Positions 2,771-60,300 of a DNA stretch of 64,000 nt are shown piece by piece (position 1 is the stretch's first letter; each line of letters opens with the position of its first letter). Source of the DNA: Amoebophrya sp. A120 (Eukaryota > Protista > Dinoflagellata); the NCBI GenBank assembly GCA_905178155.1, contig CAJINV010000004.1, forward strand, positions 9,710,625 through 9,774,624, read 5' to 3'. Under the pieces are notes generated by a model. The model had not been told where the DNA came from. It made no database searches and saw nothing but the letters and a program-made list of their open reading frames with translations. Both the position numbers and the translations under genes were made by a program.

Positions 2771-5700
2771 GCCCGGATCCAGCAGCTGAAGGACGGTGGG
2801 GCTACACTGAAGGGTGCGAACACGGTATCACATTGAAAAATCCCCCTCCCCATACCAAAAGGAAGTTTCTGATGCTGGATTTGCGTGTGCAAATCACGTT
2901 TGTCTTGCTGTAGAGGACTGCAAGCGTCTGCCGAGCCTGAGTAGAGAGGTAGTTGTGGCCTAGGCGCTTAGCATGAGGAACGTCTATGCTGTAGGCCCAA
3001 CAGCATCACAAACTGCCTGCATAATGCGGCAGAGCCTGTGGAGTTGTCTTCTTGCAAGACAGACGTGATTTGTGGTCTCAAATTAGCAAGACAAATTTTC
3101 GGAAACATACCTTTTCGATATGTTGGGGAGGGGGGATTTTTCCTCTCAATATACGGAAGAATTCTACTCCGCTGCGGGCTCCTCCGAAGCTGGGGTTCCC
3201 AAAAAAACGCTCGACACCACCAGTCTCGATGCGTCCTATGGCGTTCTCAAACGTTACATTCTCAACTGTTACATGAATTTGTGACGCAAGGGCCGCAACA
3301 GTGAAAGGGGCAAGCTTGCAACTCTCGCATCACAAATCCGGCACAGATTTAGATGCTGTTTAGCCCTTCGGGGATTTGTCATGCGAGGCGGCTTGATTGT
3401 CTGGTGGCTCATAGTAGTTTTGCATGACACATTCATGTAACAGTTGAAAATGTAACGTTTGAGAACGCCATACGTCCCTCGACCGGGTTCGTGCGTTAAT
3501 TGACGCGGCCAAGCAGCGCATGGAGAAAAATTTACCGACGATTTTCCCCGAACTGCTGGCTGGGCAGCAAAAAAACACAACATCAACTGGAACACAACCA
3601 CAGCACTACCACCACGAGGCGGAGATGCTGGCGCACACGTTGGACGCGCTCCTGCAAAACGCGGCCCTTCTCAAGCAGGCCCTCATCGAGTTTAAAGACT
3701 ACCGAGTCCGGATCGGCTCCGTCATGTCCGAAGGGGCGAACTCAGACGCATATGAAATGCAAAAACATCGTGCTAGTAAAAATCGCTTGACAAATTTCCT
3801 CAGCATGAGAAATAGAATTTGTAATGCGGATTTACCTTGAGAACAGAATTTGTAATGCATGACTGCGATTAGTACGAGTATGATACTTTTGCAATGCATA
3901 ACGCACAGCGGATCGCAATCCACACGAAGATCGGCGAGGCGAACTTGCGGGAGCTGGAGCAGTGGATCGAACAGAATTTGTACATTTCAACACATTCAAC
4001 GACGAGGACCTCTGGAACTGGAACTACTACAGCCAAGGACATGACTATGAGAGATGGAAAGAACAACCTCCTGAACAACCGCATGAGCATGGCCTCCGCG
4101 ACTTCGAAAGCTAGTGGTCGGAACTCACAAGTAGATCAAAACGCGACTTTCACAGACAAGTTGCGGGAGAAAGCCGATCGGGAGGCGCAAAGGCTGCACG
4201 AGTGGCGGTTTATGCATTGCAAATATGTCTGGGTCTGGTTCTGGAACGCTGGAACATGGCATGCTATTTCTGGATACTGCAAAAATCTGTGTTGCATGAT
4301 TACCAAAAGCTGTCCACTTTTGACCAAGTTGAGAGGCAGTTTCTCATGCAGGTGAGGCATGACCATAGAGGTCGTGCAGAATCTCTCATGCTCGGCCATG
4401 CATGACAGACCTCATGGTGCGTCATGGAACACCTGCATTACAAGTCTCGCAGCCTTCCAGACCCTGACATATTTGCATTTGATACGGCTGAAGGAAGCGC
4501 AGTTTCTCGTTTCCGAGCAAAAGGAGGTTTTGGCCGACCATGAGCGGGTTCGAACAGTTTTGAAGACCCGGTTTGACAAATTCGAGAACCGGGTTGCGGA
4601 GTGGCGGAGGAGACAACTGGCCGAGAATTTTGACCCGACATTCGGTTCCTCGGAGCAAGAAACTTCCGCTCGTCGCAAAAACGGACAACTCTCGTCCTCT
4701 TTGATCGCAAAACCGGAGGGCGAACAGGAGTTCATCCAAGGTCTGACCACTGATTCGACCCAACTGCCCCGAGGCTCCTCCGCCTCTTCTTCCGCAACCT
4801 CCCTCTCCAGTCCCCGGCAAGCGCAGGCGATGGCGCGACGTTCGGTGGGTGGTGGGGGGAAAAACGTGATTAGCCGCGCGCTCGCACGGTCCGCCTCGCG
4901 TGAAAAAATCCGGCAACGCCAGCATATGAACTGCAAAAGTATCTTACTAGTAGTAATTGCAATACAAATTAGCTGAGCATGACAAATGGAATTTGTCATG
5001 CTGTTTTACCTTGGGATCGAGATTTGTAATGCATGATTGCGATTACAACTACGAGTGCGATACTTTTGCACAGGATACAGCACGACCGGACGCAACGGCA
5101 GGTGCCGAGGAACTTCGCGACGCCGGGGGAGTTGTTATCGGAAGCAGCGTATCAACCGCAAAAATGTCTGGGTCTGGAAGATTGCAACTTGTCATGCTGT
5201 TTTTGGACTCTAAAAAAATTTGTATTGCATGACCAGCAAGAGGGGCGCAGTTTTGCTACACGGACGGGCCATTTCTCATGCGGAAGGTGCATCAGGAAGC
5301 CCTCTAAATGTCTACGATGCTAGGCCAAGCATTACAGGCATCACGGGTCATGAGAAATATGCATGACAGATCTTGCGTTCTTCCAGACCCAGAGATTTTT
5401 GCATTTGATACAGCGGACTCGGTCGCGGGCCTGGACATGTACTCCGCAACGTCGCAACAAGGAGGAGGAGGCTCTTGCGAAATCAACAATGTGCAACAAC
5501 AAGAAGTTGTAGGAGATGGAGATGAAGAACTACAGGAGGGTGTGGGGTTACTGGAGCAAGTCAGACTCGTGTCCGGTGCTGTTGATATACACGAACAACA
5601 ACAAAAGCAGCTGCAAAATAACATCAACATCACAAACAATTTGCTGCAAATGGACCCCCACGCGGCGGATGTTGATCCAATGATTCAGACGTTCGAAGAG

Positions 5701-6740: not shown

Positions 6741-8146
6741 ATGCTCGCGAGCGCAACGAAGACGTTTTCCGAGCAGTCGGAAGGTCGGACGAGCAACGCC
6801 GTGACAACCAATACGGCGCTCCTCAACGGGGCAGGTCAACTACCCCAGGCGGCAGTCCCGCCCTTTCCAGCAGCTTCCGGTAGTAGTTCCTCCGCTAATA
6901 TTCCACATGTAGCACAGCCAATTCCAACGTCCTCCCAGCAATACCATCAGTCAATCGGCGCCGGCGCACCAGGAGTTTCTCCCCCTTCTGTTGTTGACCC
7001 TGCGCAGCTCTGCCTCCCGAACCCTCGGTCCTCGCAAACTGGGTTGCAGCTCCAGCAATTAGATGGGTATGAGGCAGCTGCGAGCTCTGGCGGCGGACCG
7101 CCGAACTACGCGATACAGCAGCGACAAAACGAAACGGAACACCGAGTGGGCAGGTTGCAGGATATGATGATGTGTTTGGCGAAAAGGGTTGACGACACGC
7201 AGCATCAAGTGATCGCACAGCAACAGGTATGATAGAGTTTCAGTGTGACTTTGCTATTTCTCTTGCAGCTGCTTCATCTGTTTGTGTTTCCACCGTCTGC
7301 AACTGCATGACAAAGTGCGTATACATTTTTCCTGCTGTTTGTTGGATGAAGAAAATGTCTTTCTATATCTTTCCAGTACTATATCCACTCTCACAGGCCA
7401 GCGCCGCGCAACGCCAGCAGCCGATCATCATTCAAAACCTATGAACTGCAAAAGTATCCTACTCGTATAAATACATTACAAATTTCCTCAGCATGAGAGA
7501 GAAAATTTGTAATGCGGACTTCGCTTAAGATAAAGATTTGTAATGCAAGGCTTGCATTTATACGAATGCGAGACTTTTGCACAGGATAAAACCACGCGTC
7601 GAGCAACGTGGAAAACACCGCGCCACCACCGTATGACAGTGCACAACTTCCCTTCCCCCTCATTTGTGTTGCATGAACAGCAACACAAGCGCTGGCAAAG
7701 ATGCAGCTTTTGCATGACAGATTCCTAGAGGGTTATAGTGCTGTTTGGGATTCAGGAATCTGTCATGCAAACAGTGCTAGCAGGCAAAGGGGATCCTTGA
7801 CCTGTGGCGCTGGGAGCGGGTGTCCACTACATGATGATGATGATGATGATTTGCAATTTTGCATGACAAATGGGGGGGAGGGGGAGTTGCGCACTCTCAT
7901 ACACCGCAACCGCAGAACAGTAGTTTGTTCCACAGCGGGCTGCTCGAGACCTTCCTGGTCGATCTCCGCTCCTGGTGGCGATCTCCGCTCAATAAGTTCT
8001 GCGTCTATTGCGGAATGGGGCTCGGCTTGTATCTGTGGCAGCAGCGGTTGCAGCACAGCTGGCGGTTGAGTGAAATACAGCGGAGAATCGACGCAAATAT
8101 CGTGTTAAAAGTGTCACAGTGGTTAAGCCGACACGTGGAAATGTAG
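6741..8146 (+). CDS. Hypothetical protein (~268 aa) with a C-terminal hydrophobic segment; 1 GT-AG intron (7227-7396) and 2 introners
   Basis: CACC-ATG at 6741; the spliced frame is open to TAG at 8146. Confidence 0.75.
7440..7588. mobile_element. Introner family C
   Basis: DR AAACC. Confidence 0.9.
7632..7901. mobile_element. Introner family E (singleton; TIR TATGACAGTGCACAACTTCCC)
   Basis: DR CACCG; internal GAT microsatellite. Confidence 0.88.
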
Positions 8147-9255: not shown

Positions 9256-12200
9256 GTGCAGGGGTTGAAGCAAGAGCAGCTTCACCAGTGCTTCGCGATC
9301 GAGACGACAGAAACTAGTAGTGCCTCTACTTCAAGCAGCAGTGCAGTTAGCACCACCACGCCACCGACGAGGACTCCGCCGACGTTGTTGTCGCACCTGG
9401 TGAATTTAAACACAGAGCTGCAGTCCTGCAAGACGGAGGAGAACCGGCAAGACGCGAGATGGACGAAGTTGGAGAAAATTTTCGGGGCCTGCCATCACGT
9501 CGTCTCTACCTTCGATCCGGAGCGGCGTGCGGGAAACAAAACGCCCAGATGGATGGCAGCGGCGCGGGAAAAAGCGGCAGGCGGCTTCATCACTTCTGGT
9601 GGGTTGGAGGGAAGTCCAGGCACCATGGGTGCTGGAGCTCTGGGTGGTCGGAACAAGAGGCTCTGGGGCGCCGGGTGGCAAGGCGGGCAGAAGTCCCCCA
9701 GAGGAAATAACACTTCGGCTGCATCAGGTTCTTCATCCGGCGCAGCATATCACCAAAATCACAAAACCTTCAAATACCGAAGACGTCACACCGGCGCGGA
9801 TAGAATTCTCCGCGACAACCACTCTGCGCCGACAGCTTTTGGCACAACTTCGTGGCAGGCAAGATCTGGAGGTGTCGTGTTTGGCCGGGGAGGCGGAGGA
9901 GCGGCCTCCAATGGAATTATTACAGGCAGAGGAGAACATCAGACCACGTCCCGCTCCGACCTCCCGATCGAAGTTCGGAATTACCAGTTAGCCGCCGCGA
10001 AGCGTGCCTTCGCGACCTCGCAGCGACGCTGGATCGATGCCTGGCTGAAGCCGTTTGGGCAGAACAGACCCGTCTCCCAGCACGTGCAGGTGCTGCTGTT
10101 TCCGGTGTTGCCTACTTCGAGTGGTTGTTCATTGCTCTTCTTTTTGCACAAGATAGCATTGGACGAAAAATTCGACGCTGTTGTCCAACACCAGAGTGCC
10201 GGTGGCACGACGACCAGCAGCAGTACAACAACTGCTAAAACAAAAACGACAAATGCGGAGAAACTAGAATATCTCGCCAACATCAACTTTTTGTCCCGGA
10301 GCCTCGGAGAAGCGAGTTTGACCACGATTGCGGACCGACAGGTCGCGGCGGATAAAGCTGCGAATGGTCGTGGGTGTGATGTGATCGAGTCGGCGATGCG
10401 GCTGTTGAAGAAACAAAAAAAGCAGATTTTAGAACTGGAGCTGCGCTCGACTGGTTGTGGTGGGGGGTCTTCAACACAAGCTTCTTCTTCTTCCGCATCC
10501 CCGTCCATCTCGGGCAAAAATTACAAATTTGAAGATGATTTTGAGCAAGACCACGACCTAGACGATACCACGTCGAATATAATTACCGACAGAAAAATTT
10601 CCGACCGCGTGGTCGCACTGCAAGAAGAGATCCACTACTACAACCTTTTCGTCCTCAACTTCGTGCGAGAACACGTCCGGGAGCTGGAGGCGGCGGTTGC
10701 GGAAGCTCTGGCCACCGAGGTAACAAAGATTGCTGTGAGGGAACAGGACAATGCGGCGATGCAGGAAATAACCGACTTGCGCGAACAGTACGAACAGGTG
10801 TTAAAAGAAGCCGCGACGTCTACTGGCGTCCTCGAGAACACTGCGGAAAAGCGCGCGGATGTCATCGCACACCTCTATGAGTTCGCGCTGGAGGAGGGTG
10901 TTTCGTGTTGCGCTGAGCAGGCTGAAGAGATCGAGGTCGTCGCGGTTGGGGGCGCGGAGGACGAGACGAGTGAACAAGCTGCATCGGTTCCTGTGGTCAC
11001 TGGAAATAGAGAACCAGACTCCGAACAAACTACTGCCGCCACGACGAAGAGTCTTTGCAGCGTTCTCGAATCCTGGCTCTCCTCCACTACTACCGCAAAT
11101 TCTACTGCGGAATCCGTGCGGCTACGGCGCGAGCTCCAGTTCTTCGCTGATAACAACAATAACGATAAGACCGCTACCGCTTCGAAGATCACAACCCCCG
11201 CGCTTCTCTTTTTTATCTACGACATCACAAGAGAAGGGCCGGCAGAGGCGGACGTGGGATCCGTTTTAGCGGAACTATTCGAGGAGTGTCTGCAGCTCCG
11301 AGACAAGGTGTCGAAGTGCAACGATGCGGGGGAGTGGCTGCAGAATTCGGAGAAATCTTTCCTGCAGTGCGTCGAGAAGGACATACTCGGGGGGAGGAGA
11401 GAGAACTGGGCGCAGTGCAAGACCAGTTTGTTCCCCCACAATGTTGAGACCAGCAAAGCGCAGGCTGCAGCAGAAACGACCGCGACTAAAGGTTGTACCT
11501 CCGGGATGAACAGTGCTCGGAAAGTGTGGCTTTCCCGGGACGCGCGCGCGTTTTTGTCCTCACTTTCGCACGCGGAGAAGTCCTATCCTGTGCAAAAGTA
11601 TCGTACTCGTAGTAATCGCAGTCATGCATTACAAATCTCCATCCCAAGGCAAAACAGCATGATAAACTCCCTTTGTCGTGCTGAGCTAATTTGTATTGCA
11701 ATTACTACTAGTACGATACTTTTGCAGTTCATAAGTCCAGTTTGTTCGACCGCGTTTGTGAGTTCAACGAGGGCATGGCACGGTATGGCGTTCTCAAACG
11801 TTACATTCTCAACTGTTACATGAGTTTGTAATGCAAGACTAGCACAGGTGAGAGGGAGAACCTTGCGCGCCTTGCATTACAGGTTTGATCCGTATTACAG
11901 TGCTATTTAGCCTTCCGAGAATTTGTCATGCGAAGCAGCTTGATCGTCTGGCGGGTCATGGTCATTTTGCATGACAAATCATGTAGCAGTTGAGAATGTA
12001 ACGTTTGGGAACCCCATACACGGACAATCCAGAGGAAAGAAGTGGAGCATTACCAGCAACGGGAGCTGCGCACGAACGTGAAGGCGCTGATCGCGGAAAA
12101 TGAGAAATTGCGGGGGAAGTTGCGGACCGAGTTGGTCGCCGCGGGCCAGAAGATTGTCGGGAAAATAAACGAGAGTGGTTCTGCTTCGTTGGCAACATCT

Positions 12201-15200
12201 TCTTCGAAAGTGAAAGACAACAACGCAGGAGCAACGGGTGGCGCAGCAGGGTCTTTCTCAGCCCCTACTGATCAAATAAAACCGCAGCAGATGAAAGTCC
12301 TCACCGACCTGTCCGAGGGCGACGCCATAATACCGCCGGCTCCCCCCATCGATCTGGCCGCGCTGGAAGCGGAAGAAGCGGGCTCGGAGAAAATTGCGTC
12401 CTTTCTTTCCATATCAAATGCAAAAATGTCTGGGTCTGGAAGAATGCATGTTTGTCATGCTTGTCTGGAATGACTCTTAAATCTGTCATGCACGTTACCC
12501 AAGAGCTCCATTTTTCTGTGATGCAGAAACGCAGTTTGTCATGCAGAATAGGCAACATCTAGAAAGAAGCTCAGAAACTTGTCATGCTTAGCCATCACTT
12601 GTGGCCTCATCATGAGACGCCACCCAGCAGCACAAGTTTCCAGACCCAGACATTTTTACACTTGATATTCCAAACTGGATAACAGCGAAGCTAGGCTGTT
12701 GGATTTGATCTCCGAAAGCAAGGAACTCGAATCCCTCGATCATTCAGGTTGTACTAGCACGGAAACGCTAGAAGTACTGGCGCAGAAAGCAGACGACAAA
12801 GTTTTTAACCTGGAACTCTTCGGCTTGCTTCTCGACAGCAACGAGGGGTTGGAGCGACGGATCCGCACATTGAACCGCGAAATGGCCGCGCAGGTGTTGG
12901 TTCAAGAGAGTGCATCTTCTTCAAACACCAGCAAAACCACATCAAACCGCGGCGTTCCTCAACACATCACTAACGATGCGAAAGACCGGAAACAGCGACT
13001 TGGGACCTTGTTAAAATCCGTGGAGCGCGGCGTTCCATCCGCGACCTGGGCGAGGCGGAAAACCGCAGATAATAATTCTAGTAAGACGCCTACCAGTTCT
13101 TGTGCATCTACTTCGAGTGCAGCTGTTTCTGCTACAACTACTTTCGAGATGAAAAAGTCGCGGTCACGGAAAGGCTCGACGTCTGAACTGCAAGACGACC
13201 ACGACGGAGTCACTAGGGGCTCCGCCTGCAATTCCACGATCTCTACGACTGCGAGTAGCAGTAGTTCTCTGAGATACAGCAACAGCTCCTCCACCGCTTC
13301 GAACAGTGTTGTGAACGCCAACAAGCTTTTCTCCCCACCATCAAGAAGTACCAGAACCGGAGGACGTGACACCACGGTTAACAATACTGCGAATAAAGAA
13401 GACGAGTGGAAAGCGCAGCTACAGAACGACTACAACGTGCCTTGCGAAAGTGTGTCAACCCTCGGAGAAGCCATCGTGAAAGTGCTGGACCTGACTCACT
13501 CGGAGTTGTTTCTCCTACCGCAACACGGGTTTGAAGAGTTCGCAAACGGCGGAATGATGTTGAGAAAAAACGCAGCTGGTGCAGCTACCCAAACTCCTGA
13601 CAGCACCGATGTCGGTGGTCGGTATGGAAGCGTCAGGATTGAAATCGTCACTCAAAGTTGAAATGATTTCTCATGCAGAAATTGCAAGGCATCAAGTGCC
13701 TCTCTTGCAGGGACGACAAGTGAGGCCGACTGTCAGCCTGTTTGGGGTCTGCGGTAATGCTGCTAAACTAGCATGACAAAAGACGCCTTCTGTTCCTAAA
13801 CTGCATGACAAACTGGATTTAGTTGGTGCAGAAATTTGTCATGCGCCGCTTGAAAATTGTGCTTCCAACTGGTATCGATTTTATGCATTACAAGTTATTT
13901 CAACCTTGTCGATTTCGATCCTGACACTCCCATAGTCGGTACCAGCGGTGTATGGACGCCAGGGTGCTGAAAAAAGTCTCAGAGTCGATTCTGGTCGAAA
14001 ACGAAGATGATCTCCTGAGAGTTTCAAGTAGAACATCTTCCTCTTCGTCGTCGGGAAGTAGCTCGTCCTCTAGTTCGTCTAGCATGATCTTCCCGGATGA
14101 AGTAGAAGATCAGGAGCCGCTAATTGCAAGGGCCGGAGCCAGAATCGAGAAGAAGTGTCTTTGCCTGTTTTCGCGGTCTTCTTTATCGACGTTCTCGGGA
14201 GGTGAAGATCGGGACGATGAACGAGAACAAATTGAAGACCACGCATTAGTCAACAAAACTCCAACAGCCTTGGCGCTGATTGAGTACGGTGGCGATGGCC
14301 TTCCTTCCTCCGCGGCATCGACCTATTCCTGGGTGGTGATGACATTGACAAACTTGCTGAACGACGAGAACAGTACGTGCAGTAGATCGAGCTCGTCGCA
14401 TCATGATCAAGATGTTCATCATGTTCTTGGTGACGAAAAAAATACTACGCCTGCCTGCTACACCGTCCTGATGAAATACCCGGTCACTTGCCTCCCAGAC
14501 GGCCTCTTCGAGCTTCCCAGCAAGTTTGACCCCGAACAAGCAGGGGTAGAAGTTGTTCCGGATAATGGTGGCGAGAGACCACGAGGACCTGATGGTCATG
14601 TTACTGCTGTTTCTCTTCCTGTCGTTTCGTGTTCTCGCCAACGTTTCGACATTGTGCAGGTGGAGAATTTCAACACCAAAAGCCCCTTCATATCCTGTGC
14701 AAAATTATCGTACTCGTACAAATGCATTACAAATTTTCTCAGCATGAGAAATAAAATTTGTAATGCTGATCTACCTCAACAAAAAGATTTGTAATGCATG
14801 ATCGCAATACGATTACGAGTGCGATACTTTTGCACAGGACACTTCACCGATATCGACATCTTCACGGACGCAGCGACCTATTAAATGCAAAAATGTCTGG
14901 GTCTGGAAGGTTGCCAGGCCTATCATGCATATTTTGCATGACCCAGGAGGTCTGTAATGCATGACCTAGCATCACAGATTTTGAGAGGCGTTACTGATGC
15001 CTATTCCGCATGGGAAATACCGTCTCCATGTGGGACAAAGTGAACTCTTCTTGCTGGTCATGCAATGCAGATTTTTTTGCAGTCCAGAGTTAGCATCACA
15101 AGTTCCAACCTTCCAGACCCAGACACCTTTGCAATCCATACGACCTATTCCCAAGCGCGAGAGCAGCAGGAGCACTTTCTGCGGGTGGACGCGCAAGTGA

Positions 15201-18200
15201 GTAAAGTGTTCGTGTGGGTGAGCAGCTACAGCAACGACTTGAGCCGGAGGTATTCGGGGGTCTACGCGAAAAACAACCATCCGGCGTTTCCGTATTTTCT
15301 TACCTTGGAGGAATCCGCAGACTCGTTAAAGGCGAAAAACTGGAGCACTGACGACGCCAAACATCGCGCGGTGGGACTGGTGCCTCACTTCATTTCATCC
15401 GGGTTCGGAACGGCGTCTGGTACTGGTGCCACGCCCCTTTCCACCCCGTCGAAGACGCCCACCAGCTCAAGCTCTTCCTCCACTTCTGCGTCGACCTCTA
15501 CATCCAAACGCACAGTTAACTGCGATTTGCGGTGGTACTTGGCGGAAATCGACCCACTGCAGGGGTATCTATCCACAGGAATTTTTTTCCCATACACGTA
15601 GAAATGTGGCTCCCGCATGACAAACTTTTCCTACGGATCCTCTTCCGCATGACAAGTTGCTTCGTCTAAGTCCGTGAAATGATTTATGATGCATTTTGTC
15701 CATGTATGGGGATAAATTTGTATTGCATAGTAGCAGCCCAATTTGAACAAGCAACCGCAGATCCAGGGTTTACTAGAAACACCCGTTTCGGCGAACAACA
15801 GCGATATCCTCTGGTTGCAAATCGACCCCGAGCACATGTTCAAACAGGACGACCTACGGCTGTCCTTTGAGGGGGACCAGCGGTGGACGCTGTTGCAGCA
15901 GTACTATGGTCCAAACGGGATCTTCCCCCGATATAACAAGACCAATTCGACGGACCAGGTGGAACAGTTGCAGAGCCAAACACCCGGACAGACCCCGACG
16001 GCGGCGGGGGGAAGGGGTGGAGGTGCTGCGTCTGGCCGGAGTAGCAGCAGCAGCGGTAATTCTAGTGCTTGTGCCTCCTCTACTTCGTCATCTTCAACGT
16101 CATCAAGTAGTTCTTCCAGCAGTAGCTCCAATAGGTCTTCGAGTAAGAAGAAGAACGGTCTACCACAGTACACGCCTTTCTGCGAGTATCCAAGAAAAAA
16201 AGTTTGTTAGTGTATTAACTATCTTCGGCTGAGGACAGCATCACAAATTTGCTCTACATGACTGAGTAATAAACCTGTCATGCGTGGCTTGTAAGGGAAA
16301 ACACACACGAAAAGACGACTACATGGTTGTCTGGCATGTTGACAGGTGTCAGAACTCTGTTGCATGTTCTGCATTTTTACAGAGTTACACTTACACAGTT
16401 TTTTTCTTGCATAGCGAGTACGACGAACGAGAATTTTTCGACCTCTACTCCGTCACCGTCGGCGTGTTTCAGGATGAGGCCGCGTATCCTGTGCAAAAGT
16501 ATCGTACTCGTACTAATTGCATTTATGCATGACAAATCTTGTCCTTAAGGTAAAGTAGCACGACTACAAATTCCATTCTTAATGCTGAGAAAATTTGTAA
16601 TGCATTTATACGAGTACGATACTTTTGCAATTCATACCGCGTGGCTGACGTTTATGCAGGGCTTCGAATCCTCCGGCGCGAAGTGCACCGCGAAAACGGT
16701 ACAAAAGAGGCTACCACCACCCTCGAAAAAAAGGAATTACTACGGGAATCTCGGAGGAGGAGGTCGTGGCGGGGACCTGCTCCAGGGAAGTAGAGGTGGC
16801 GCAAGCTCCAGGGCCAGAAATCACAATAACGCTGCTGACGATCGCGGTCGAGGAAACAGAGGACCACGTGGAGGTGGAGATCCTAGTGAAGACGATGACA
16901 GTTTCGTGAACGGCACCAGGGTTATTGTCCCAGAACAAGACCGGAAGTGCTGCGCTGGCCTACTTGGCAATATTAACAGCAAAAGAGGACCACGCGGCGC
17001 TGCTTCGCGAGGTCAACAGCAACATCAAGAAAGTGGCGACTTTCTCTCCGCTTCCCCGCCAACACACCGGTCCAGGTTGAGTCCGTTACTAGGGGGCATT
17101 TTCGGCGGCTGCGCGATTTCTACCCCCAGCCGGGAAAGAACATCAGAAGAGGTTGGGGAGTTCGAGTTGCGGGAGCATCCGCAAAGTGCGAAAAACACAC
17201 CATCGCCCGGCGCGGCGGATGGTGGTCGTGCTGGGAAGAGCAAGTCGAAGAGAGGAGCTGCTGAGGAAGTGGATCTAAGGAACAATGGCACGCGCACGCT
17301 GCAGAAATCTCACAGCGCCGAACAGAGCACTAGTCAGGAGCCGCGGAAAGACCGGCGGGCGGCGCAAGACGCGAACATCAAGCACCAGATATCCTGAGTA
17401 AAAACGTCCCCACACCATTTTCAAGATGGGGAATCGGCTAGACAAATCCACAAGTTTTGGCTGTTTTGCATGACAAATTTGGATTCGTAGTGTAGTGCTG
17501 TCTGAGCTAGCTCAGGAGCATCACAGATCTAGCATACCATGCTGATTGGAGCATGACAAATTGCAAAGCACGACTATAAAATGCTTCTCTTGGGGCTCCG
17601 CATGAGAAACATTTTCAGCATGCAGATTTGCATTACAAATACAACTATTGGGTGGGGACGTTTTTAAATAGGATACCAGAAAGAGAAGTCCAGGACGACT
17701 AGGACGAAAAGAAATCCTATCGCAAGAAAAAAGTGTTACAGTTACACATTGTGTTGCAGGCCAAGCAAGACAGACAAGCTCTGTCATGCCGGATATGCAT
17801 AGGAGCCTCGTTTCATAGGTGTTTTGCCGTAGGATTTCTGCATTACAAGTTTTCTCTCTCATGCAGGGACATTTGTGTTGCTGAATTCACTACAAATGTG
17901 TAACTGTAACACTTTTTTCGTGGGATAAATCCGGCCGATGGAGGCGGAACCACAAGAGTTCAGGCTACCGGAGATGCGCATCGTGATACTACAACCTCAA
18001 AGCCCCAGAAATACCCAAACAGCGCGTCAAAACGGTCCGGCGCACTCGCCAGCTCTCCGGCAATCGCCTGCTCCCCGAGCTCCCCCTCCCACCCCGGGGT
18101 TCTCTCGACCGTCGAGGTCGCGATTGCCAGCAAAACCGAGGAAGACTGCACCATGAACTACCTCGGCTGGAAAGCGAAGGAGCTATTTCCGCCGATAGAC

Positions 18201-19165
18201 GACACGGAACGCGTGCAGATCCGGGTCGGCGTGAGGCGACGCGCGTTGACACGATACAACGGAATCTACCGGAAAATCGTGGTTTCGACGACCCAAGATG
18301 ACTCTAGTATTCTTGGCGAAACCACATCAAGACAACTCCCCATCTTTGTCCAGGAGCTCCACGAAGCGGTGCTTCCCGACGGCAGCTCGTCTCCGAAACT
18401 GCAGGTGTTAAGACCCGGTCACGGCGCGTCGACGTGGACCACGAGTTCTCCTGCGCACGCGATGCCGGCCGCGGCGCTATTCCCCTTTTACGGGTCTGAT
18501 AGGAACGATAAGATCGGGTGGTATCTGACCCACGTGCGGTACGACAAGGAGCTGAAGCAATTCTCCTGTTACAACCCGAACAGCAAGAAGCAGCCGGCGC
18601 TCGCGAACCTTCGCGGGACGATGTGCCATGAGGATTCGCAGTACATTTTTCTGCTCGAAAACGTCGATTTCAGTGGCACGCAGGACTGGTACTGCATCCA
18701 GCAGCACTGGGACAGTAGCGGGAACCCCTTGGATGACGGGAAGAAACCGCCGAAGCGGGGACAGTACTTCGGCAGCGAACACGGGAAGAAGACGGCGACA
18801 CTGCGGGACCTGATGGGGTTCGTCACCGCGGGGTTATGAACTGCAAAAGTATCGCACTCGTATAAGTGCACTGCAAATTTCCTCAGCATGAGAAATAAAA
18901 TCTGTAATGCGGAAATGCCTCAAGAAAAAGATTTGTAATGCAAGACTTGCATTTATATATACGAATACGATACTTCTGCACAGGATAGGGGTGGGTAAGG
19001 GTCGACGTCGAGCCGATGCGAAGTAGAGCACCTGCTTCGGGCTTGAACAATAATACAACCAATAGAAGTCCATTTTCTTCGCCGGTAGCAACTGCGGGGG
19101 GTGGCGGACTTTCGGCGAAAAAAAAGACGAGCAGTCCCAGTGCGGTGCTGCAGTCGCCGAAATGA
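9256..19165 (+). CDS. Large hypothetical protein (>2,400 aa), 12 introners; true start upstream and unresolved (possible exon near 8898-9026)
   Basis: ORF-track fragments 9256, 12042, 12699, 13952, 15065, 15743, 16582 and 18153 join in one frame when the 12 elements plus one DR each are removed; stop TGA at 19163-19165. Confidence 0.75.
11584..11733. mobile_element. Introner family C
   Basis: DR AGTCC; opposite orientation to the 4925 copy. Confidence 0.9.
11784..12018. mobile_element. Introner family B
   Basis: DR CACGG. Confidence 0.9.
12412..12667. mobile_element. Introner family D
   Basis: DR TTCCA; close relative of the 25689 copy. Confidence 0.9.
13623..13934. mobile_element. Introner family F (TIR TATGGAAGCGTCAGGATTGAAATCG)
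   Basis: DR GTCGG. Confidence 0.9.
14691..14841. mobile_element. Introner family C (3' end ACA)
   Basis: DR CTTCA. Confidence 0.88.
14879..15140. mobile_element. Introner family D
   Basis: DR CGACC. Confidence 0.9.
15570..15729. mobile_element. Introner family J (singleton; TIR ..CCCATACA)
   Basis: Imperfect TIR; DR GTATC/GTAGC; frame restored only if the 5' copy is kept. Confidence 0.8.
16187..16413. mobile_element. Introner family G (TIR TATCCAAGAAAAAAA..GTGTAA)
   Basis: DR GCGAG. Confidence 0.88.
16485..16636. mobile_element. Introner family C
   Basis: DR CCGCG. Confidence 0.9.
17390..17675. mobile_element. Introner family H (TIR TATCCTGAGTAAAAACGT)
   Basis: DR CCAGA; close relative of the 37381 copy. 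Confidence 0.9.
17718..17927. mobile_element. Introner family G-like (AAAAAAGTGTTACAGTTACACATT)
   Basis: DR AATCC. Confidence 0.9.
18835..18987. mobile_element. Introner family C
   Basis: DR GGGGT. Confidence 0.9.
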
Positions 19166-39543: not shown

Positions 39544-39580
39544 TAAGGATAACTGCAGCAGCGTTGTGATAAGGATAACT
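39528..39580. repeat. 26-bp tandem duplication spanning the GTPase stop codon
   Basis: TGCAGCGGCGTTGTGATAAGGATAAC followed by TGCAGCAGCGTTGTGATAAGGATAAC. Confidence 0.85.
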
Positions 39581-50200: not shown

Positions 50201-53200
50201 TGCAGAGATACGATAAGTTTAATGACATTGCGCGGGTGGACACAAAAAAACTACGAGCAGTAGAGAAGCTCCGAAGTGTAGTCGCCGGTCCTGCTTCACC
50301 ATGTGGGAGTTGTGACAACAATATGGATGATCATGTTGCAGTTGCCGGCTCAGGCTTATCTTCTGCTGCAGCTGGCTCCTCTTCGACGTCGAATATATCG
50401 CCGCGGGGCGGGGTTGACATGTTTCAGCCTGGGAAATTGTTTGAAAAGGTGAAGCTGCAGGAAAACGCCACTCTCAAATTCGAGAACAAGGGGCTCGTGG
50501 TCGGGGACGTTCAACATCTTGACAACGAAATAGATTGCAAGGACAACAACAGCACTTCTACCCAAGAAGACCCTCCGCACGACACCGTTATTACGCCGCA
50601 GCGGAAGCAACTTCAGCTCATGATGCCGGGGTTCGATACCGCAGAGAGCTCTTTTGTTTCATCTAGTACCGGCGCAGGGGGAGATACAACTGATACAACT
50701 GACTTGTTGTTCCCTAACTACGTAACCGGGAAGAATATGAAACACACTACATGCAGCACCGCGACTGAGGCCGACGTGACGCCCAGCATTGTCGCCGGGC
50801 GGGTGAGCGTTTCCGAGATCGACGAAATCGACCGAAGAAGAGCGCACCAGAAGGGCTTTAGCAGCGAACACCCGCTCGTGATTCTGGATCGCGAGGAGGC
50901 CGCGCGCAGAAACGCGGCGTTGCCGACCGGCGGCATGATTGACCCGACCCGTGACTTGCCGTTTGCATTCAGTCCGCACGGGAGAACGAGGGCTGATCAA
51001 GTCGACCAGCAGCAGCAGCAGCCGGGTGCTGGCACTGTTCCTTCTTCGCTGGAAAGCAGCTCCTCATTATTTCGGGGCAACAATGTGGAGAATCCGTTCG
51101 CGAATTTGATGATCAAAACCACTTTTGGCGGTGGGAACAAGACGAAGACTCCTGACGCAGTTGATGTCCGAGCTGCTTCTACTACAGTTGTTCTCTCGCA
51201 TCAAACCACGAGTAAAAATAGTACTGCGATAGAAGCGCTTGCTGGAGCTACCCCTGCTTCTGAGGACACGACCAGCACTAATCAAGTAGACAAGCGGCTC
51301 GAAAGTTACAATAGCACAGGCACAGCAAGCTCCGTTATAGGCGCTCCGGTAGGTGGAGTTGTTGGTTCTGCTGCGTTCGTCCCTCGTGTACTTTCTTCCC
51401 CGCTGGCCGGCGTTACTCCAGTGCATGAACAAGTAGAAGATGCAGAGTCGCATGACGAGGCGCAACAACAGCACGTAGAGTCGCCGCTACACCAGACGAG
51501 AACCGACCTAGGGGTCATAAGATCAGTTGGAAATTATAACACCAAGAACAGCCCAGAACAAGAAGTTCAGAACATCAACAACAACCCCAGAACCTCCAAC
51601 CGTCGGTCAACCTTTTCGTCCTCCGACGACATCCCCTGCCTACCCCGGACCAGCGACACGACGGGTAGCAAGGTGAATTCCCCCAGTTGGGCTATCACGA
51701 CCGCGGAGATCCTCGGCGTGGACGTGGCGACAGACATTGGGCTGCAATCAGATTACACCGATGACGGGTTTTCGCCGGGGGAAAAAGCGGCGTTGCAGGT
51801 TTTGGTGCTGGAGAAGGGCGGCTTAGCGGCAATCACCGAAGATCAGGCGCTACCCGACGATTTGCCCGTGCACATGACTTATCAACTGCAAAAATGTCTG
51901 GGTCTGGAAGATTGCAACTTGTCATGCTAAATCTGAAGCATGCAAAAATCTGTGTTGCATGATTACCAAAAGTCGTCCAGTTTTAACCAAGTCGGGAGGG
52001 AGTTTCTCATGCAGGATAGGCATGAGAGAGATCGCATAGAATCTGTCATGCTAGGTCCTGCATTCCAGACCTCATGGGTCATGGAAAAGCTGCGTGACAA
52101 ATCGCGCATTCTTCCAGACCCAGACTCTTTTACATTTGATATGACAACCAGCCCGGCGATTCCACCGTTTAACCCGAAGATGAACAATATGACTGCCCTG
52201 CAGCCTGGATCATTATCTTGGACAGGTCGTGGTGCAGCCAACAAGGATTTCGATGGTGCTGCTGGCAATATCGAAACTACCTTCAACATTCCGAATGCCT
52301 TGATAGAACGAGAGCATCAACGGGAAGTAGAGCACCACATGCTAATCGAAGAGCAAGCTTTTATAGAAGACCCGCTCTTTCATCTTACAAATACAAGTCC
52401 GCCGCCGGGTGATCTTCAGATGCTCCACATGATGTCCTCACCATCCTCCCCACCGTCGCTCGCTCTATTGTCCAAAACTCCGAGCGAGCAGGCACGGGAC
52501 GCACACTTACGGGAATTTTTAGCGCGGAACCCGCACGAGCACGAACTGGCCAGACGTCAGCGTACGGACTCGCAGCAGGACCAAACAATTGCCGAAACAG
52601 GTCGGATCGCCGACTTGCCTGGGGGTGGAGCAGGAGCAGGGAACAATAAGGATGAGGATGAATTTTCTGGTCACCACGAAATAAACAGTGGCACGCAACA
52701 ACTTCCGGGGCAGCAGACGAGTGGGAACATGCAACTTCTGGACCCCAGAGTTGCCCTGGGAACGACAAGTCGAGGCGCTCCTATTTCATTTCCGGGTCAA
52801 GATGACGCACCCAAGGATCATGCGCAGGAGCAGGTGGACCGCAAGAACAGCAGCAACATGCTGTCTAGAACTTCTTCTGGGCCGCACAATGTTCATGATC
52901 AGCAGCAGCATCACAGCACGTTCATTTCACATCCCTCCACCACCATCCACTACCCTTCCCTGGCGTCGACGGAACGCGGGGGAGGTAATAATTTGTTGCA
53001 AAAGACGAAGTCGAACTTGTCCGTTGACAGCTACTCCGACGCAGAGACGATTGTGCCCGGACAAGAAGGTCCAAGCTCCGGGGGAATATTAAACAACAAC
53101 GATTATTCCAACGTGAATTACCACCTGCAAAGTGTCGACGAACTGGTGGAGCGCGCGACTGGGCAGGCACTGTCTCCGCATAGCAGCTCTCGTCCTGGGA

Positions 53201-55690
53201 GCCGGGAAGCCTCGCAGATCAGTGCTGCAACAGCTGGGGGAAATAAAGGGAAAGACCTACCATTAGCTGGCGCAAATAAAGGACAACAGATGACATCACG
53301 AGATGCAGCCAAGACCAAGAGCAAAGACGATTTACTTCTACTCGGCAGTACTTCTGAGGGTGCCGTAGTAGAGCAGTTGAAGCACGACGAGAGCCAGCAC
53401 GCGATATTCAAGGAAGAGCAAGACGATGTCGACAATGTCCTCGCCACGGGCACGGTTAATTACTGGGGCACGCTACTGGGTCCGAGTTCGGAGATGGTCC
53501 GGCAGGCACGGTTTGTAGGACAGAACAAGCCGCTGCAGGATTTTTTGTTGGAAATTGAGCAAGAGAAAGAACAGATGTTGGTGAAATCCAAATCACATGA
53601 CGAGAATTTTGCTGGTGTAGCTGATCTTCAGGGCGAGCATTTACACGCTACGCCGAGCAGAAGTCCTAGTGCCAGCCCGGCAGTTCCTGTAGTTCCACCC
53701 TTGAATCAAAGCCAAATGAAACTGCTGCCCCGGACCGTTTCCACGCAGAGCAACACTACGGCTGCTGGTGGTGATATGGATGTGTCAGAGTTGAAATCGA
53801 CAGAGTTGAAATAACTTGTAATGCATGAAATCGATACCAGTCGGAAACCCAATTTCCAAGCGGCGCATGACAAATTTGAGTAGAGCCGAAATCCAGTTTG
53901 TCATGCTCTTCGGGTGAGACAGATGCCTTTTGTCATGCTACTTTAGCAGCTCTATTTCTACCCCGAAACAGGCTTACAATCTGCCTCCTGTGCCTACTCT
54001 GCAAGACAGGCATTTTCTTTGGTGCATTTTATGCATGACAAACTATTTCAACTTTGACGATTTCAAACCTGACGCTTCCATAGGTGACCTGCACCAAACT
54101 GCCCTCCAACGCCAAGTGTCTGGCCTGGAACTGATGCTTGGAACTTCTATCAAATGTAAAAATGTCTGGGTCTGGAAGAGTGCGCGATTTCTCATGCAGC
54201 TTTTCCATGACCCACGAGGTCTGGAATGCAGGACCTAGCATGACAGATTCTGCGCGATCTCTCTCATGCCTATCCTGCATGAGAAACTCCCTTCCGACTT
54301 GGTCAAAACTCGACGATTTTTGGTAATCATGCAACACAGATTTTTGCATGCTTCAGATCTAGCATGACAAGTTGCATTCTTCCAGACCCAGACATTTTTA
54401 CATTTGATAACTTCTACACAAGGACAAGATCACCGACTACAGCACAACGTCTATGGTTCCACCTCATCACTATCCGCTCTGTACCAGCATATCCCGGTTG
54501 CGGCGCCATCCAGTGCAGGAGCAGCTGGCGCAGCTCATCTTGGCGATCACAGTTACAACCCCTATGATTTTTCCCTGTCTCCGGGTGCTTTCGGACCACC
54601 AGCCGCGACGGTTATTCCAGCGAACCTGAACATCGGTGACCCCTACCCGACGGACTTCACCAGCATGCCACTGTCCCCGACGGCCATTCTGGCTTACCAA
54701 AGACAGAAATTTATTGGAGGTTCCTCCCAACACTCCGTTTCCGGAGAAAGTTTGAATAGCTTCGGCCGGTCCACGCAGGTGCGGGGCGGGGTGACCACAG
54801 GAGCAGCTTCTTCCGTCGGAGGGGGAACTGCTCCTGGCCCACCTTTTGCTGGTTTGGTCCGCGCAGGGACAGCAGGAGCATCGAAAGGAGCTCTCTCGGA
54901 TGCAGGCATGACAAACTACACCGGTTACACTGGAGGTTTGCAGTACAACCCGGCCGCAGCACGCGAATCCCAAGTCACTACTCCGAGATACACCTATGCG
55001 GGCTTGTCGGACCAGATCAACAGCGTGGGTCCGCATTTTGGCACGGAGCTTTCGCACCTGCAAAGTAGAGCCTTTTCCACGGAGGTCCATTTGGGAGGAG
55101 GTGGGCAACATCTTGCAGGTACTACAGGAGCAGCTCCTGGTGGCGGTGCTGCTAAAACGAGCACGACATCGCAAGTTGCTGCAGTAGAGCCGGTCGCCCG
55201 GCATATTGACCGGCAGCGGTTTGTGGTGATGGGCATCGAGGACTTGCCCAACTTCGACGGCATTTCCAAGGGCTACCCGCTGCAATTTCACAACTGCGAG
55301 GAGTTGCTGATCCAGAAGATCCAGCGGCTGATGGACGCGCATCCGGACATCGACTGCTTTCTGGTCGAGTGCACGCAGTTGCCAATGTTTTCGGATTCCC
55401 TGCGGGCGTTGTTCCAAAAACCGGTGTACGACATCACTTCCGCGGCACACATGATGATGCTGGGCTTCCAAACCACGCCGAAATGTGACGACGAGCTGTA
55501 CAAAATTGAGGACGCGCAGCCGTACTGCTTCGGGATGGAACTGGGCGCGAAAGACCGGAGGAAGTGCCTGGAATTGCAACGGTTTCGCGATTTGTTCGAC
55601 GAGGCCGGGATTCCGCTCGATAAAGATGCTGAAAGTGGTGATGAAGCGGAGAACGAAACAAGGAGGGACGACAGTCGAGCAGGCTTCTAG
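41285..55690 (+). CDS. Giant (~4,306 aa) protein with two split Alma-family (DMSP lyase / Asp-Glu racemase superfamily)-like domains in low-complexity sequence; 5 introners
   Basis: ORFs 41285, 46156, 51940 and 54404 join after excision; motifs LGCLRLD..AGDVADP..RVVPGLTFEMCRSG..ITGDCGFMMFFQ..KPVCMSSL..IAILTAN and FLVECTQLPMFSDSLRALFQKPVYD; degenerate first copy ISGEDGLM..KPCCMSPL..FVECAEM..GVPVWD. Confidence 0.8.
45482..45787. mobile_element. Introner, family A-like (TIR TATCACAGTGAAAAATGCCCC)
   Basis: DR CGTTG. Confidence 0.9.
45833..46154. mobile_element. Introner family A (reverse orientation)
   Basis: DR AATGA. Confidence 0.9.
51880..52141. mobile_element. Introner family D
   Basis: DR TGACT/TGACA. 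Confidence 0.9.
53775..54082. mobile_element. Introner family F (reverse orientation)
   Basis: DR GGTGA. Confidence 0.9.
54148..54409. mobile_element. Introner family D, near reverse complement of 51880-52141
   Basis: DR ACTTC. Confidence 0.92.
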
Positions 55691-57316: not shown

Positions 57317-60300
57317 ATGGAGCATCATCTCCGGGAAGTGGCCATGCGTTCCAACACGCGGTCGTTTTCTATGGCGTTCTCAAACGTTACATTCTCAACT
57401 GTTACACGATTTGTCATGCAAAATGAGCATCAAGCTCCGCACGGTGAAGCTAGTTCGCATGACAAATTTTGGAATAGCTAAACACCATGGATATCTGTGC
57501 CAAATTTGTAATGCAAGAGTTGCAAGCTCCGGCCTTTCCCTTTTGCCATTCCAGCATCACAAATTCATGTAACAGTTGAGAATGTAACAGTTGAGGACGC
57601 CATATTTTCCGCCGTCGCGGGCAAGCGGGCGTGGAGCGATCCGCAGACACACTGGGCCGCCGCGACCAAGCGCCCGACCACACCTTCGTACCGGACCGCG
57701 CGCATGGGCGGCTACAACACGAATCACGACGGGACCGCCCGACCGGGCACCAGTCACGGCACCGGCACCGCGCACCAGAACGCGACGCATCACGGTGGGT
57801 ACACGACCACCACGTCTGGCGGGCATTCCAACCCGACCGGGTTGCCCAGTGGACGAGCCAGTTCTTCCGGCGCGAATCACGCGGGGGCTGGTTCCCATGC
57901 GGGCGCTGCTGGTGCTGCCGCTGCGCACCAGACAAACGATAAAATCGCCAACCACCGGGTTCTGCATTTGCTCTCCAAGCGTCCGCACTCGGCCTTTAAC
58001 ACGAACCGGAAGCGCGCGGTGCGACCCGTGGCGGTAGGCGGGGAGACCACGGCGCACGGAGGTCATCATCACGGCGCGCAGCACCACGAGCGGAAAGTGC
58101 GGGAGCGACCGAAAAGTGGCGACAATTACCACCACCGGACTTTTCACCACGCGATGAACGCGACGGTGCCGGCCGATGCGACCTATGCCATGAACCAAGG
58201 AGCTGGTGCTACTGGCGTCACTGGCACTGTATCAACTGCAAATATGTCTGGGTCCGGGAAGTTTGGACTTGTAATGCTGGTCTTGCATCCCTATGGAATC
58301 TGTATTGCATGATCAACAAAAGTTGCAGCCTCTTTGTCTTTTGTCATACAAAAACGCAGCTTCTCGTGCGGGCTGTGCATGACAAAGCGTTATGGGAATA
58401 AGTTGTCATGCTTGGCTGCAGTCGGCAGTGTTTCCATCATCCATATTTTCGCATCACAAGTTTCCAGACGAGACGTCCAGGGATATTTGCATTTGATACA
58501 CCGCCGCGTTGAATAACAACACGGACAACGTGATTTCCACGGCTATGGACTACCGCCGGTACATGGACGAGAGACGCCGGATCCAGGCGGAAAAACGGCA
58601 CCGGTTGAACAACCTGCACCAAACGGAGCACTTCCACGCGGCTGGGGCGGGTGCTGCGGTGGCCAAGATGAACCACATGAACCATACTGCAGGGGGGGAA
58701 ACTATGGAAGCGTCAGGTTTGAAATCGACAAAGTTGAAATGATTTGTCATGCATAAGATGGATACCAGTTGGAAACCCAATTTCCAAGCGGCGCATGACA
58801 AATTTTCCGAGCACTGGAATTCAATTTGTCATGCTGTTTGGGCACAGACGACCGCTTTTGTCATGCTCCTTTAGCAGCTCTACTTCAAACCCTAAACAGG
58901 CTGACACTCGGCCTCACTTGCCATCCCGGCAAGACAGACACTCCACGCCTTGCATTTTATGCATGGCAAATCATTTCCGTGAGCGCAATGAGTTGGTACG
59001 TTGGCGAACGTTAAACGTACTCTGTTGGCAATAAGTTGGTTTGTTGGCGAAAAGTAAGGTTTGTTGGCGAACAATAAACGCATCCGTTGGCGCAATGTAA
59101 GGATCGTTGGCGAACGTTAAACGTACTCAGTGGGCGAAAAGTTGGACTTGTTGGCGAAAAGTATGGTTTGTTGGCGCAAAGTAAGGATCGTTGGCGAACG
59201 CTAAACGCATGTTGGCGAAGTGAGGACTGTGTGCGAAAGTAAGGAAAAGTTGGCGTAAGTGGGATCATGTGCCCGAGGATGATGGTGATGGCTTCGGTCC
59301 GCCTGACTCCACGACCTGGTGGCCGAACCATCTGCGGTGAGGTGCCCTTGCAGGTTGTGTAGTGGTTTCGGTCGGTTTAGCATGGCAAATCATTTCAACT
59401 TTGACGATATCAAACCTGACGCTTCCATAGAAACCTCGTTCGGGGGCGCGACCGCCTCTTCTCGGCCGGGGACCGCCGGGGCGAGCGGCAATGCAACCGC
59501 GAGTTCCGCGTCGAAGACGGCGGCTTTCCAGCAGCAGAGAGCGAATTCCAGTTCCGCGACGGAGGAGGACGTCGACGGGGTGTCTACGAGATCCGGCACC
59601 GTACACATGGGCAAGACCGCGTCGACATCGCTAGCGTCCTTGACGAACCTCCGGGACCAGATTTCGAACTCGAATCAGAACGCGCTCTCCACCTCTTTAA
59701 AGCACCAAAATGTCGTTCTTGGAGGTACTGCTACTGCTGACGCGGCAAGCCGGCCCAATACCGCCGGCGGGGCAGGAGGTTCTACACCGACAGGGTCGGG
59801 GGCTACGGGCACTACCGCGTTGCCATTTACCACAAATTTGGCGAGCTCTTCTTCGTCTTCCATGAACCAAGCGGGCTCCAGGACTGGTACAGGCTTGGTG
59901 GATAACGCCGCGATGGACCACCAAAACAAATCTTCCGGTAATGGTGCCCAGCAAACCACCACCGCGCAACAAGCCACCGACAGCACGGGATCCGTCCCGC
60001 CTCTCGGCTCCGGCGGACAGGGAGCGGGCGCACAGTCGAAGCAGACGCGGCAGTACGGTGAGCCGATCACGCTGCGGGCCCCGACGGGCACGTCCGGGGG
60101 TGGGCCAGCACAGTTGGACACCGGAATGGCGGCGCGGCCCACGACTGCACCCTCCGGTGCGACGAAACCCGGGAAACAGGCGGACGCGCAGGCCGCAGAG
60201 CAGCAGCAAAACCGGCAGCACGAATCCTGGCACCAGGACGACGAGCAGGGGACTTTTGGGGGCGCGCTCGCGAACATTAACACCTCTACGACGATTCACG

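Follow-up and report, generated by a model that had tools for sequence, protein, structure and literature searches.

Introner families of Amoebophrya sp. A120 share a discretely spaced word, a putative binding site for a common mobilising protein

Introduction

How tens of thousands of non-canonical introns have spread through Amoebophrya, and how they are spliced, is the question addressed here with a 64-kb stretch of Amoebophrya sp. A120 DNA (64,000 nucleotides, assembly GCA_905178155.1, contig CAJINV010000004.1, positions 9,710,625 to 9,774,624 of the forward strand; hereafter the window). The introners of this strain have been described as elements with TAT-n7-AAA ends, flanked by direct repeats of ∼5 bp and removed by exact non-canonical splicing (PMC7789003; PMC12130899). 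Farhat et al. (2021) sorted the A120 elements into about 1,950 families and ruled out a general transposase-mediated mobilisation (PMC7789003). Family lengths lie near 106, 149, 209, 252-260, 278, 305 and 317 bp in 40 of the 58 A120 rows of the supplement to PMC12130899, which also records an A120 family with an integrase-like open reading frame (ORF), a 5-bp target-site duplication (TSD) and TA termini, labelled Ginger.

In better-known transposons, short internal sites serve the transposase. The P element carries 10-bp transposase sites 9 and 21 bp inside its 31-bp terminal inverted repeats (TIRs) (PMC7776569), and in Muta1 subterminal repeats raise transposase binding and excision (PMC5499845). 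Here we describe a short word that is repeated, at discrete spacings, inside the introners of the window, and weigh the reading that it provides putative sites for one shared mobilising protein.

Results

The genes of the window all lie on the + strand and are broken up by many short inverted-repeat elements. We searched for these elements blind to any internal motif, requiring TAT...ATA ends, a 5-bp duplication and TIR similarity. This search yielded 52 elements, against 0, 1, 0, 0 and 0 in five simulated controls, and relaxed searches added three and then one more (family K, overlooked at first), giving 56. The duplication, itself a search requirement, forms a short direct repeat at the exon boundary and was exact in 46 of the 56 elements, with one mismatch in the remainder. 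Excision of each element, along with a single duplication copy, restored long reading frames, such as one frame of 4,317 codons from which five elements had been removed (41285-55690). Seven joints in assembled contigs (four runs from two samples of one study) skipped elements by exactly their length + 5; these contigs are presumed to represent RNA, and they skip GT-AG introns as well. One further spliced element was seen from adjacent contig pieces, and ten more were consistent with splicing by arithmetic on contig spans. Two RNA runs of 2026 labelled as this species had no coverage of these genes. The elements are removed from mRNA without GT-AG ends.

Base counts by position at 438 ends gave an inverted repeat of TAT, seven variable bases and AAA, the search having demanded TAT on at least one end; the AAA lay at about positions 11-14 in nine of 11 groups and was absent from B/F/I/O and E. 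Target sites leaned weakly towards C-N-N-N-G. Judged by sequence, the window elements appear to match the published A120 introners in end consensus, GC content and family lengths, and they are non-autonomous TIR transposons removed exactly from mRNA.

One word recurs inside these elements. Its strict form, GCATNACAAA, is the top shared 8-mer class over all window families and matched 103 times on the two strands of the window, compared to 0.85 ± 0.90 in 100 shuffles; 98 of the 103 copies lay inside the 56 elements, four in GT-AG introns and one in an exon. The learned motif matrix reads (T/A)GCAT(G/T/C)ACA(A/G)(A/G)T, with nine strongly fixed positions and one free wobble base. All 11 window families contained the word, as did 163 of 167 further elements (≤350 bp, described below), while a strict copy was missing from 10 of the 56 window elements. 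The density of the word per kb was 18.9 in elements, against 2.8 in GT-AG introns, 0.5 in intergenic DNA and 0.13 in exons. Intergenic DNA was not enriched: its 12 kb contained 6 sites, with 2.7 expected and up to 6 in simulations. Almost all copies belong to TAT-ended elements, and no site occurs in a TTA-ended element nested in this window, which has a 5-bp duplication of its own.

An initial annotation of this DNA had reported multiple copies of the word in all families, described these families as having different TIRs, and named a frequency no higher than in shuffled or intergenic DNA as the outcome that would speak against it. In the window, both comparisons came out in favour of the word (103 against 0.85, and 18.9 against 0.5 per kb). 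Every window family does contain it, although not every element has a strict copy; the pattern as then written fits five of the 15 sites cited for it, and the actual motif is the matrix. The TIR interiors mostly do not align, but the ends are not wholly different: they are related in part, with TAT at the start in all families, AAA in nine of 11 groups and 12 of 169 terminal 13-mers occurring in more than one group. Two other likenesses were discarded. The TIR interiors of B and F, which looked related by eye, aligned no better than chance, and terminal bases 4-13 could be taken as a motif copy in just 20% of the ends of C/K, in 10% of those of D and, at threshold, in none of the other groups. 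By eye, the TIRs of B (3237-3472) and F contain an apparent internal 15-bp tandem repeat, at positions 11 to 40.

We scanned a metagenome collection for motif pairs 31-33 bp apart, covering 10 of 64 parts, and obtained 127 loci (L numbers) among the matches listed, 66 of them from assembly JACKZZ01. From 65 JACKZZ01 loci we called 172 further elements, 167 of which were ≤350 bp. Families outside the window set occur among them; because window families also recur, with one copy 97% identical, JACKZZ01 comes from this organism or a very close one and does not count as an independent species. A distant second species with the motif was not found among the metagenome loci listed (L047, L069 and L116 excepted), and two motif-rich loci outside JACKZZ01, L130 and L146, were rejected as tandem repeats. 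A motif-pair scan of viral contigs gave 29 loci, mostly without further copies, which we read as chance or coding repeats, and two TIR-pattern searches gave 0 matches. A 323-bp TIR element with different ends, at L083:2011-2333, has no motif copy.

Conservation of the word was measured in ten clusters, with pattern-bearing metagenome copies excluded. Departures from consensus amounted to 7.3% of cells in the motif core, 8.7% in the terminal 30 bp (TIR), 23.0% in the spacers and 24.4% at the wobble base. The motif columns are three times better conserved than the spacers and on a par with the TIRs, the contrast with spacers being somewhat inflated because these same elements had served to build the matrix. 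In trees built for nine clusters, the rate of the motif relative to that of the spacers was 0.25 on internal and 0.42 on terminal branches, and the corresponding TIR values were 0.36 and 0.55 (motif versus TIR, p=0.62). This branch pattern fits selection at amplification and is also compatible with selection after insertion. In a test on singleton mutations, the spacer columns were saturated and sampling was shallow.

The spacing from copy to copy is a stronger pattern than the distance from the ends, and was absent from the initial annotation. Tandem copies lay 31-33 bp apart in 36 of 52 window elements. Measured from C to C, divergent pairs clustered at 10-11, 40-44, 53 and 62-63 bp, and convergent pairs at 21-22, 39-43 and 53-55 bp, so that the spacing between copies is discrete. 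When period (8-20 bp) and offset were both left free, a scan over 25 clusters had its maximum at 10.4 bp (mean cosine 0.49) and a lower peak at 16.2-16.3 bp (mean cosine 0.41). We then turned to seven held-out clusters that had not been used to set any distance window (one of them, K, has a window member, itself unused), and left out tandem pairs of 29-34 bp because the metagenome scan had selected on them; the remaining pairs gave p=0.002 for a period of 10.5 bp and p=0.057 for 16.25 bp. Among all periods 10.4 bp is best and significant, with 16.2 bp nearly as good, and a helical reading of the copy spacing is likely. A ∼10-bp step placing one protein on the same helix face had been proposed from the end distances; the best period between copies agrees with this, but the end distances fall into two or three modes with a sub-mode at 47, and the 16-bp lattice performs almost equally.

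Distances from the ends were measured, in elements ≤350 bp, as the position of the motif C from the element end. At the two ends of 52 window elements, the first site pointed outward in 64 of 104 cases and inward in 40. Outward first sites lay at 39-40 (9), 47-52 (43, with 27 at 49-50), 62-65 (3) or elsewhere (9), and inward ones chiefly at 35-36 and 44-49. In family D, classes at 47 and 40 are also common; the initial annotation omitted them. The 15 coordinates it cited, all at right-hand ends, do give the stated distances of 39, 40, 49 or 50. However, its description of these distances as fixed was too strong, since about 40-50% of ends begin with an inward copy and the outward ones spread over several preferred classes (39-41, 47-52 and 62-65); likewise, the outermost copy points to the terminus at most window ends, but the inward class extends beyond family C. 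In the 167 further elements, 162 of 326 first sites were outward, lying at 39-41 (44), 42-46 (9), 47-52 (88), 53-61 (4), 62-65 (4) or deeper (13). In the seven held-out clusters, 5.2 of 7.0 outward ends fell within 38-41 or 48-51, compared to 1.2-1.4 at random (p≤0.0005), and the predicted windows near 39 and 49 recur there in a distribution that is not flat. The word is thus a short repeated one, conserved like a TIR and with a preferred end distance. End-class pairs of 40/40, 50/50, 40/50 and 50/62, as well as inward classes, all occur. Two further elements had no site at threshold: L089, where a copy with one mismatch is seen by eye at 50, and L063, a decayed E-like element that has kept its TIRs and duplication inside an open frame and has lost all its sites.

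A codon-based strand caller, correct for 51 of the 56 window elements with five left uncalled, was used to orient the word relative to transcription. Over 189 stranded elements, the sense strand carried the word 405 times and its complement 396 times (p=0.78), and insertion orientation was even (98 versus 91). Elements showing the transcript one orientation only were divided into 14 one way and 13 the other. The word is not strand-specific on pre-mRNA, and this balance therefore argues against a common splicing signal in RNA, which had been offered as an alternative and which we now consider unlikely. Such a signal would accord with the exact splicing of the elements, the inverted copies of B-type elements within one long stem, the presence of the word in some GT-AG introns, and the lack of a detected U1 small nuclear RNA (snRNA) in these genomes (PMC7789003). 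Against it, families with copies in one orientation insert both ways (H: 6 versus 4); copies in H, J and L almost all point in the same direction and are therefore unable to pair with each other; only the terminal stem of a folded H element was stable in the centroid structure; elements without an outermost site at one end are still spliced (37381 by joint, 35137 by length); and phased spacing is unexpected on single-stranded RNA.

The elements, GT-AG introns with sites and nested insert of the window are listed in Table 1. The nested element at 61504-62558 sits in a family A element within a kinase-like gene; its ends resemble a type described for strain A25, and three ORFs there had no Pfam match. 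In four of eight long elements inspected by eye, the junction or a 10-17-bp duplication of a secondary insert starts at the CATG of a motif copy (22816-23253, 58703-59429, L094:2119-2749 and L058:632-1465), which suggests that these inserts are of retro type and prefer the word. Elements 7632-7901 and L103:5583-6397 have in common a 59-bp insert, identical in the two, that contains an (ATG)n/(CAT)n run and is probably a short retro-type repeat. Positions 1-600 hold a degenerate satellite of about 20-bp units and 600-2450 GC-rich repetitive DNA, with two ORFs without Pfam match.

Table 1. Features of the window. Site maps give the position of the motif C from the left end of the feature; < points left and > points right.
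Feature	Coordinates	Strand	Site map and remarks
Family A	2826..3151		<49 <82 179> 230> 262>
Family B	3237..3472		<50 92> <147 187>
Family C	3751..3900		36> 54> <76 <107
Family D	4211..4484		<84 <138 <180 191> 226>
Family C	4925..5077		36> 54> <76 <107
Family D	5150..5410		<47 <78 <131 181> 213>
GT-AG intron, inferred from frame	7227..7396	+	strong copies <39, 80>; no recognisable TIR
Family C	7440..7588		35> 53> <75 <106
Family E	7632..7901		<40 50> 82> <136 231>
Family C	11584..11733		44> 75> <115
Family B	11784..12018		<50 92> <147 187>
Family D	12412..12667		<48 <79 <112 <132 <175
Family F	13623..13934		<53 150> 182> <221 264>
Family C	14691..14841		35> 53> <75 <106
Family D	14879..15140		<81 92> 131> 185> 216>
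Family K	15570..15729		47> 79> <122
Family G	16187..16413		53> <96
Family C	16485..16636		44> <118
Family H	17390..17675		80> 130> 163> 212> 242>; single orientation
Family G	17718..17927		49> 124> <146 <163
Family C	18835..18987		53> <75 <106
Family D	21375..21636		<47 <78 <132 <171 182> 214>
Family A	21722..22046		<50 <83 177> 232> 264>
Family D	22188..22456		<51 93> 135> 189> 220>
Family C	22603..22761		<85 <116
Family D + nested insert	22816..23253		<47 <78 <135 220> <261 390>
Family D	23504..23777		<47 <78 223>
Family F	24190..24515		<49 <138 154> 186> <228 271>; RNA contig skips element + one TSD
Family D	25005..25289		<49 <87 143> 238>
Family B	25425..25659		<50 92> <147 187>
Family D	25689..25955		<57 <94 <147 <186 228>
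Family C	26177..26334		49> 80> <102 <120
GT-AG intron, RNA joint	29822..29971	+	perfect outward copy 46 nt from 3' end; weak relic TIR at 5' end
GT-AG intron, RNA joint	30082..30262	+	<41 <87
Family G	30412..30622		48> <88 141> <163; RNA joint skips 216 = length + 5
Family A	30693..31004		<51 <135 <167 229> 261>; RNA joint skips 317
Family D	31504..31756		<80 <113 <133 143> <172 183> 214>; RNA joint skips 258
Family C	34144..34293		36> 54> <76 <107
Family G	34635..34842		42> 135> 170>
Family C	34882..35034		47> 78> <100 <118
Family D	35137..35385		<40 87> 126> 179>
Family C	35964..36119		36> 54> <113
Family G	36199..36410		47> <90 143> 174>
GT-AG intron, RNA joint	37195..37316	+	67> (56 nt from 3' end)
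Family H	37381..37660		80> 130> 163> 212> 242>; RNA joint skips 285
Family H	37705..37988		52> 83> 167> 215> 246>; RNA joint skips 289
Family I	38079..38386		<49 91> <133 260>; RNA joint skips 313
Family C	38439..38588		44> 75> <97 <115; RNA joint skips 155
Family C	39237..39378		40> 71> <104
A-like (A2)	45482..45787		<51 <82 <110 140> 173> <213 257>
Family A	45833..46154		<62 <94 <146 <178 240> 273>
Family D	51880..52141		<47 <78 <132 <171 182> 214>
Family F	53775..54082		<49 92> <131 <163 228> 260>
Family D	54148..54409		<49 <81 92> 131> 185> 216>
Family B	57370..57604		<49 89> <144 186>
Family D	58230..58498		<47 <78 149> <181 223>
Family F + nested insert	58703..59429		<49 92> <131 <163 260> 679>
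Family I	60828..61133		<49 91> <130 258>
Family A, broken near right end by TTA-type element	61212..62593		<62 <94 <145 <177 239> 272>
Nested 1055-bp GC-rich TIR element, TTA...TAA ends, 5-bp duplication	61504..62558		no motif copy (internal negative control)
Family D	63585..63845		54> 87> 129> 183> 214>

Discussion

We favour, with moderate confidence, the reading that copies of the word serve, on double-stranded DNA, as subterminal sites at which one shared mobilising protein binds, putatively a transposase or a DNA-binding partner of one. That a sequence-specific protein common to many families reads the word is supported indirectly, by its conservation, its indifference to orientation, the end distances in held-out clusters and the 10.4-bp period. 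The initial annotation had suggested one DNA-binding protein serving many families; these four lines support the suggestion in part, and the protein itself was not found. In such a mechanism, several protein subunits would occupy the two to seven sites of each element. Sites in tandem, separated by three helical turns (31-33 bp), and others near multiples of 10.4 bp, would bring the subunits onto one face of the helix, and the first site, about 36-52 bp inside each end, would set a catalytic subunit on the terminal TAT, from where an integrase-like insertion with a 5-bp stagger could follow. Only copies with intact sites would be amplified, and in this way unrelated TIR interiors would retain the same word. 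Splicing, on the other hand, would depend on the TIR hairpin and the duplication and not on the word.

Several observations weigh against this reading. Nine ORFs scanned gave no Pfam match and no transposase was found among them; eight long elements that we inspected hold nested inserts and no ORF recognisable by eye as a transposase; and section 16 of PMC7789003 reports no transposase in A120. The autonomous partner could lie elsewhere in the genome. Constraint on the word persists on terminal branches, and the contrast with spacers is, as stated, somewhat inflated. A 16-bp lattice scored slightly higher in the window alone, periods of 10.4 and 16.2 bp both gave p=0.002 when the clusters were merged into ten family groups, groups H, J and L fall off the 10.4-bp period, and phasing is weak beyond 110 bp. 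Element lengths, which range from 109 to 347 bp, show no helical phasing (p=0.41). Finally, four of 14 GT-AG introns contain strong copies and have no recognisable TIRs, which counts against a mobilising protein because an immobile intron would not need them.

These introns bring in the main competing explanation, which we regard as possible but hold only tentatively, namely that a host DNA-binding protein (a chromatin, architectural or transcription-coupled factor) binds the word on double-stranded DNA and is exploited by the elements. It might act as a bending cofactor for transposition, or as an intron-defining mark during transcription, and the sites would then be kept after loss of mobility. 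The 14 GT-AG introns (six identified by RNA joints, three by arithmetic and five inferred from frames) contain seven sites, compared to 0.9 expected, a number reached in none of 1,000 simulations. Three of these sites face outward, lying 39, 41 and 46 nt from a splice site, and apart from the word there is no family similarity. Judged by eye from sequence, tandem pairs 31-33 bp apart also occur in a few GT-AG-looking, TIR-less stretches (L066:2264-2330, L106:2398-2480 and L094:2915-2975). The residual constraint on terminal branches and the published finding of no transposase in A120 (PMC7789003) would suit a host factor too, and orientation independence and phasing fit it equally well. However, the word is not enriched between genes and is rare in exons, and, at the working threshold, ten of the 14 GT-AG introns are free of sites. 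Those with copies start with GTAT or GTAA, and a relic TIR score is seen in one of them; they may therefore be decayed elements. The old element L063, moreover, has no sites left in spite of its preserved TIRs and duplication.

The GTAT and GTAA starts of 29822-29971, 30082-30262 and 7227-7396 are as expected if the G before an element's TAT became a normal donor, and the weak terminal score of 29822-29971 exceeds the 99th percentile of the background. Introners may thus be able to turn into ordinary introns. If these introns are decayed elements, near-perfect copies would have outlasted their TIRs. A bolder and rather doubtful proposal would join the two functions: one protein reading GCATNACAAA arrays on DNA would both mobilise the elements and mark them, together with their GT-AG descendants, as introns during transcription. 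If true, a eukaryote without a detected U1 snRNA would be defining tens of thousands of introns by a DNA code that is helically phased.

It is improbable that the word reflects shared ancestry, or a preference for DNA shape (flexible CA/TG steps flanked by A-tracts, as in nucleosome positioning), and is no sequence-specific site. The TAT ends of all families and the shared terminal 13-mers are in line with such an origin, as are the lengths of about 150 bp in families C and K, and a 10.4-bp period is also a nucleosome signature. Nine fixed positions around one wobble base, conserved three times better than spacers within families, are not what it would predict; nor is the variation in how many copies there are, and in their order and orientation, among families with TIR interiors that for the most part do not align, or the unphased element lengths. 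Least probable of all, given its even presence on both strands of the transcript, is that the word acts in RNA, through a protein, a small RNA or hairpin pairing, in the removal of these non-canonical introns.

That families with unrelated TIR interiors share one conserved and specifically spaced word suggests that most of them depend on a single trans-acting protein, and the tandem pair 31-33 bp apart offers a bait with which to catch it. The word also separates the cis-signals of mobility from those of splicing, and can be used as a marker to follow elements that have become ordinary GT-AG introns.

The preferred reading can be set beside several known systems. Ginger2/Tdd elements are alike in their long TIRs, and TDD-4 and TDD-5 make 5-bp TSDs, but Ginger termini are TGTNR with mostly 4-bp TSDs (PMC2836005), unlike the TAT ends here; TGTNR was not found, A being at position 2 in 435 of 438 ends (the search selected TAT ends), and no integrase-like DDE ORF was seen in the short elements or in the nine ORFs scanned. 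The 12/23 signal of RAG, mentioned in PMC7776569, similarly combines a terminal motif with an internal site, with spacers that differ by one helical turn. Here, however, the ends are TAT and not CAC, and there is no obligatory pairing of short with long: a 12/23-like rule for end classes was rejected, since all combinations occur. RAG and Transib elements make a 5-bp TSD.

The P element resembles the introners in having a 10-bp internal site about 40 and 52 bp from its two termini, an offset of roughly one helical turn (PMC7776569), but it makes an 8-bp TSD and has one site per end in a fixed asymmetry, whereas the introners have a 5-bp TSD, two to seven sites throughout in both orientations, no pairing of end classes, and a word common to many families. 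Muta1 and foldback Mutator-like elements carry multiple short subterminal transposase-binding repeats in long imperfect TIRs, with a 15-16-bp period that resembles the rival lattice here; they differ in an 8-9-bp TSD and a head-to-tail array with one orientation per end (PMC5499845), while the introner sites are sparse, mixed in orientation and set in unrelated spacer.

For A120 introners themselves, the available parts of PMC7789003 and PMC12130899 describe no cross-family internal motif or spacing of the kind present here. The word and its spacing were likewise not found in the literature searched, which included supplement tables and excluded figures and two supplement files of PMC12130899, nor in the available parts of PMC11453091, PMC11282704 and PMC9860276. 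The elements are known, and so are subterminal binding arrays as a kind of feature; what is new is one word common to more than ten families whose TIR interiors are unrelated, its copies mixed in orientation and discretely spaced within spliced introns.

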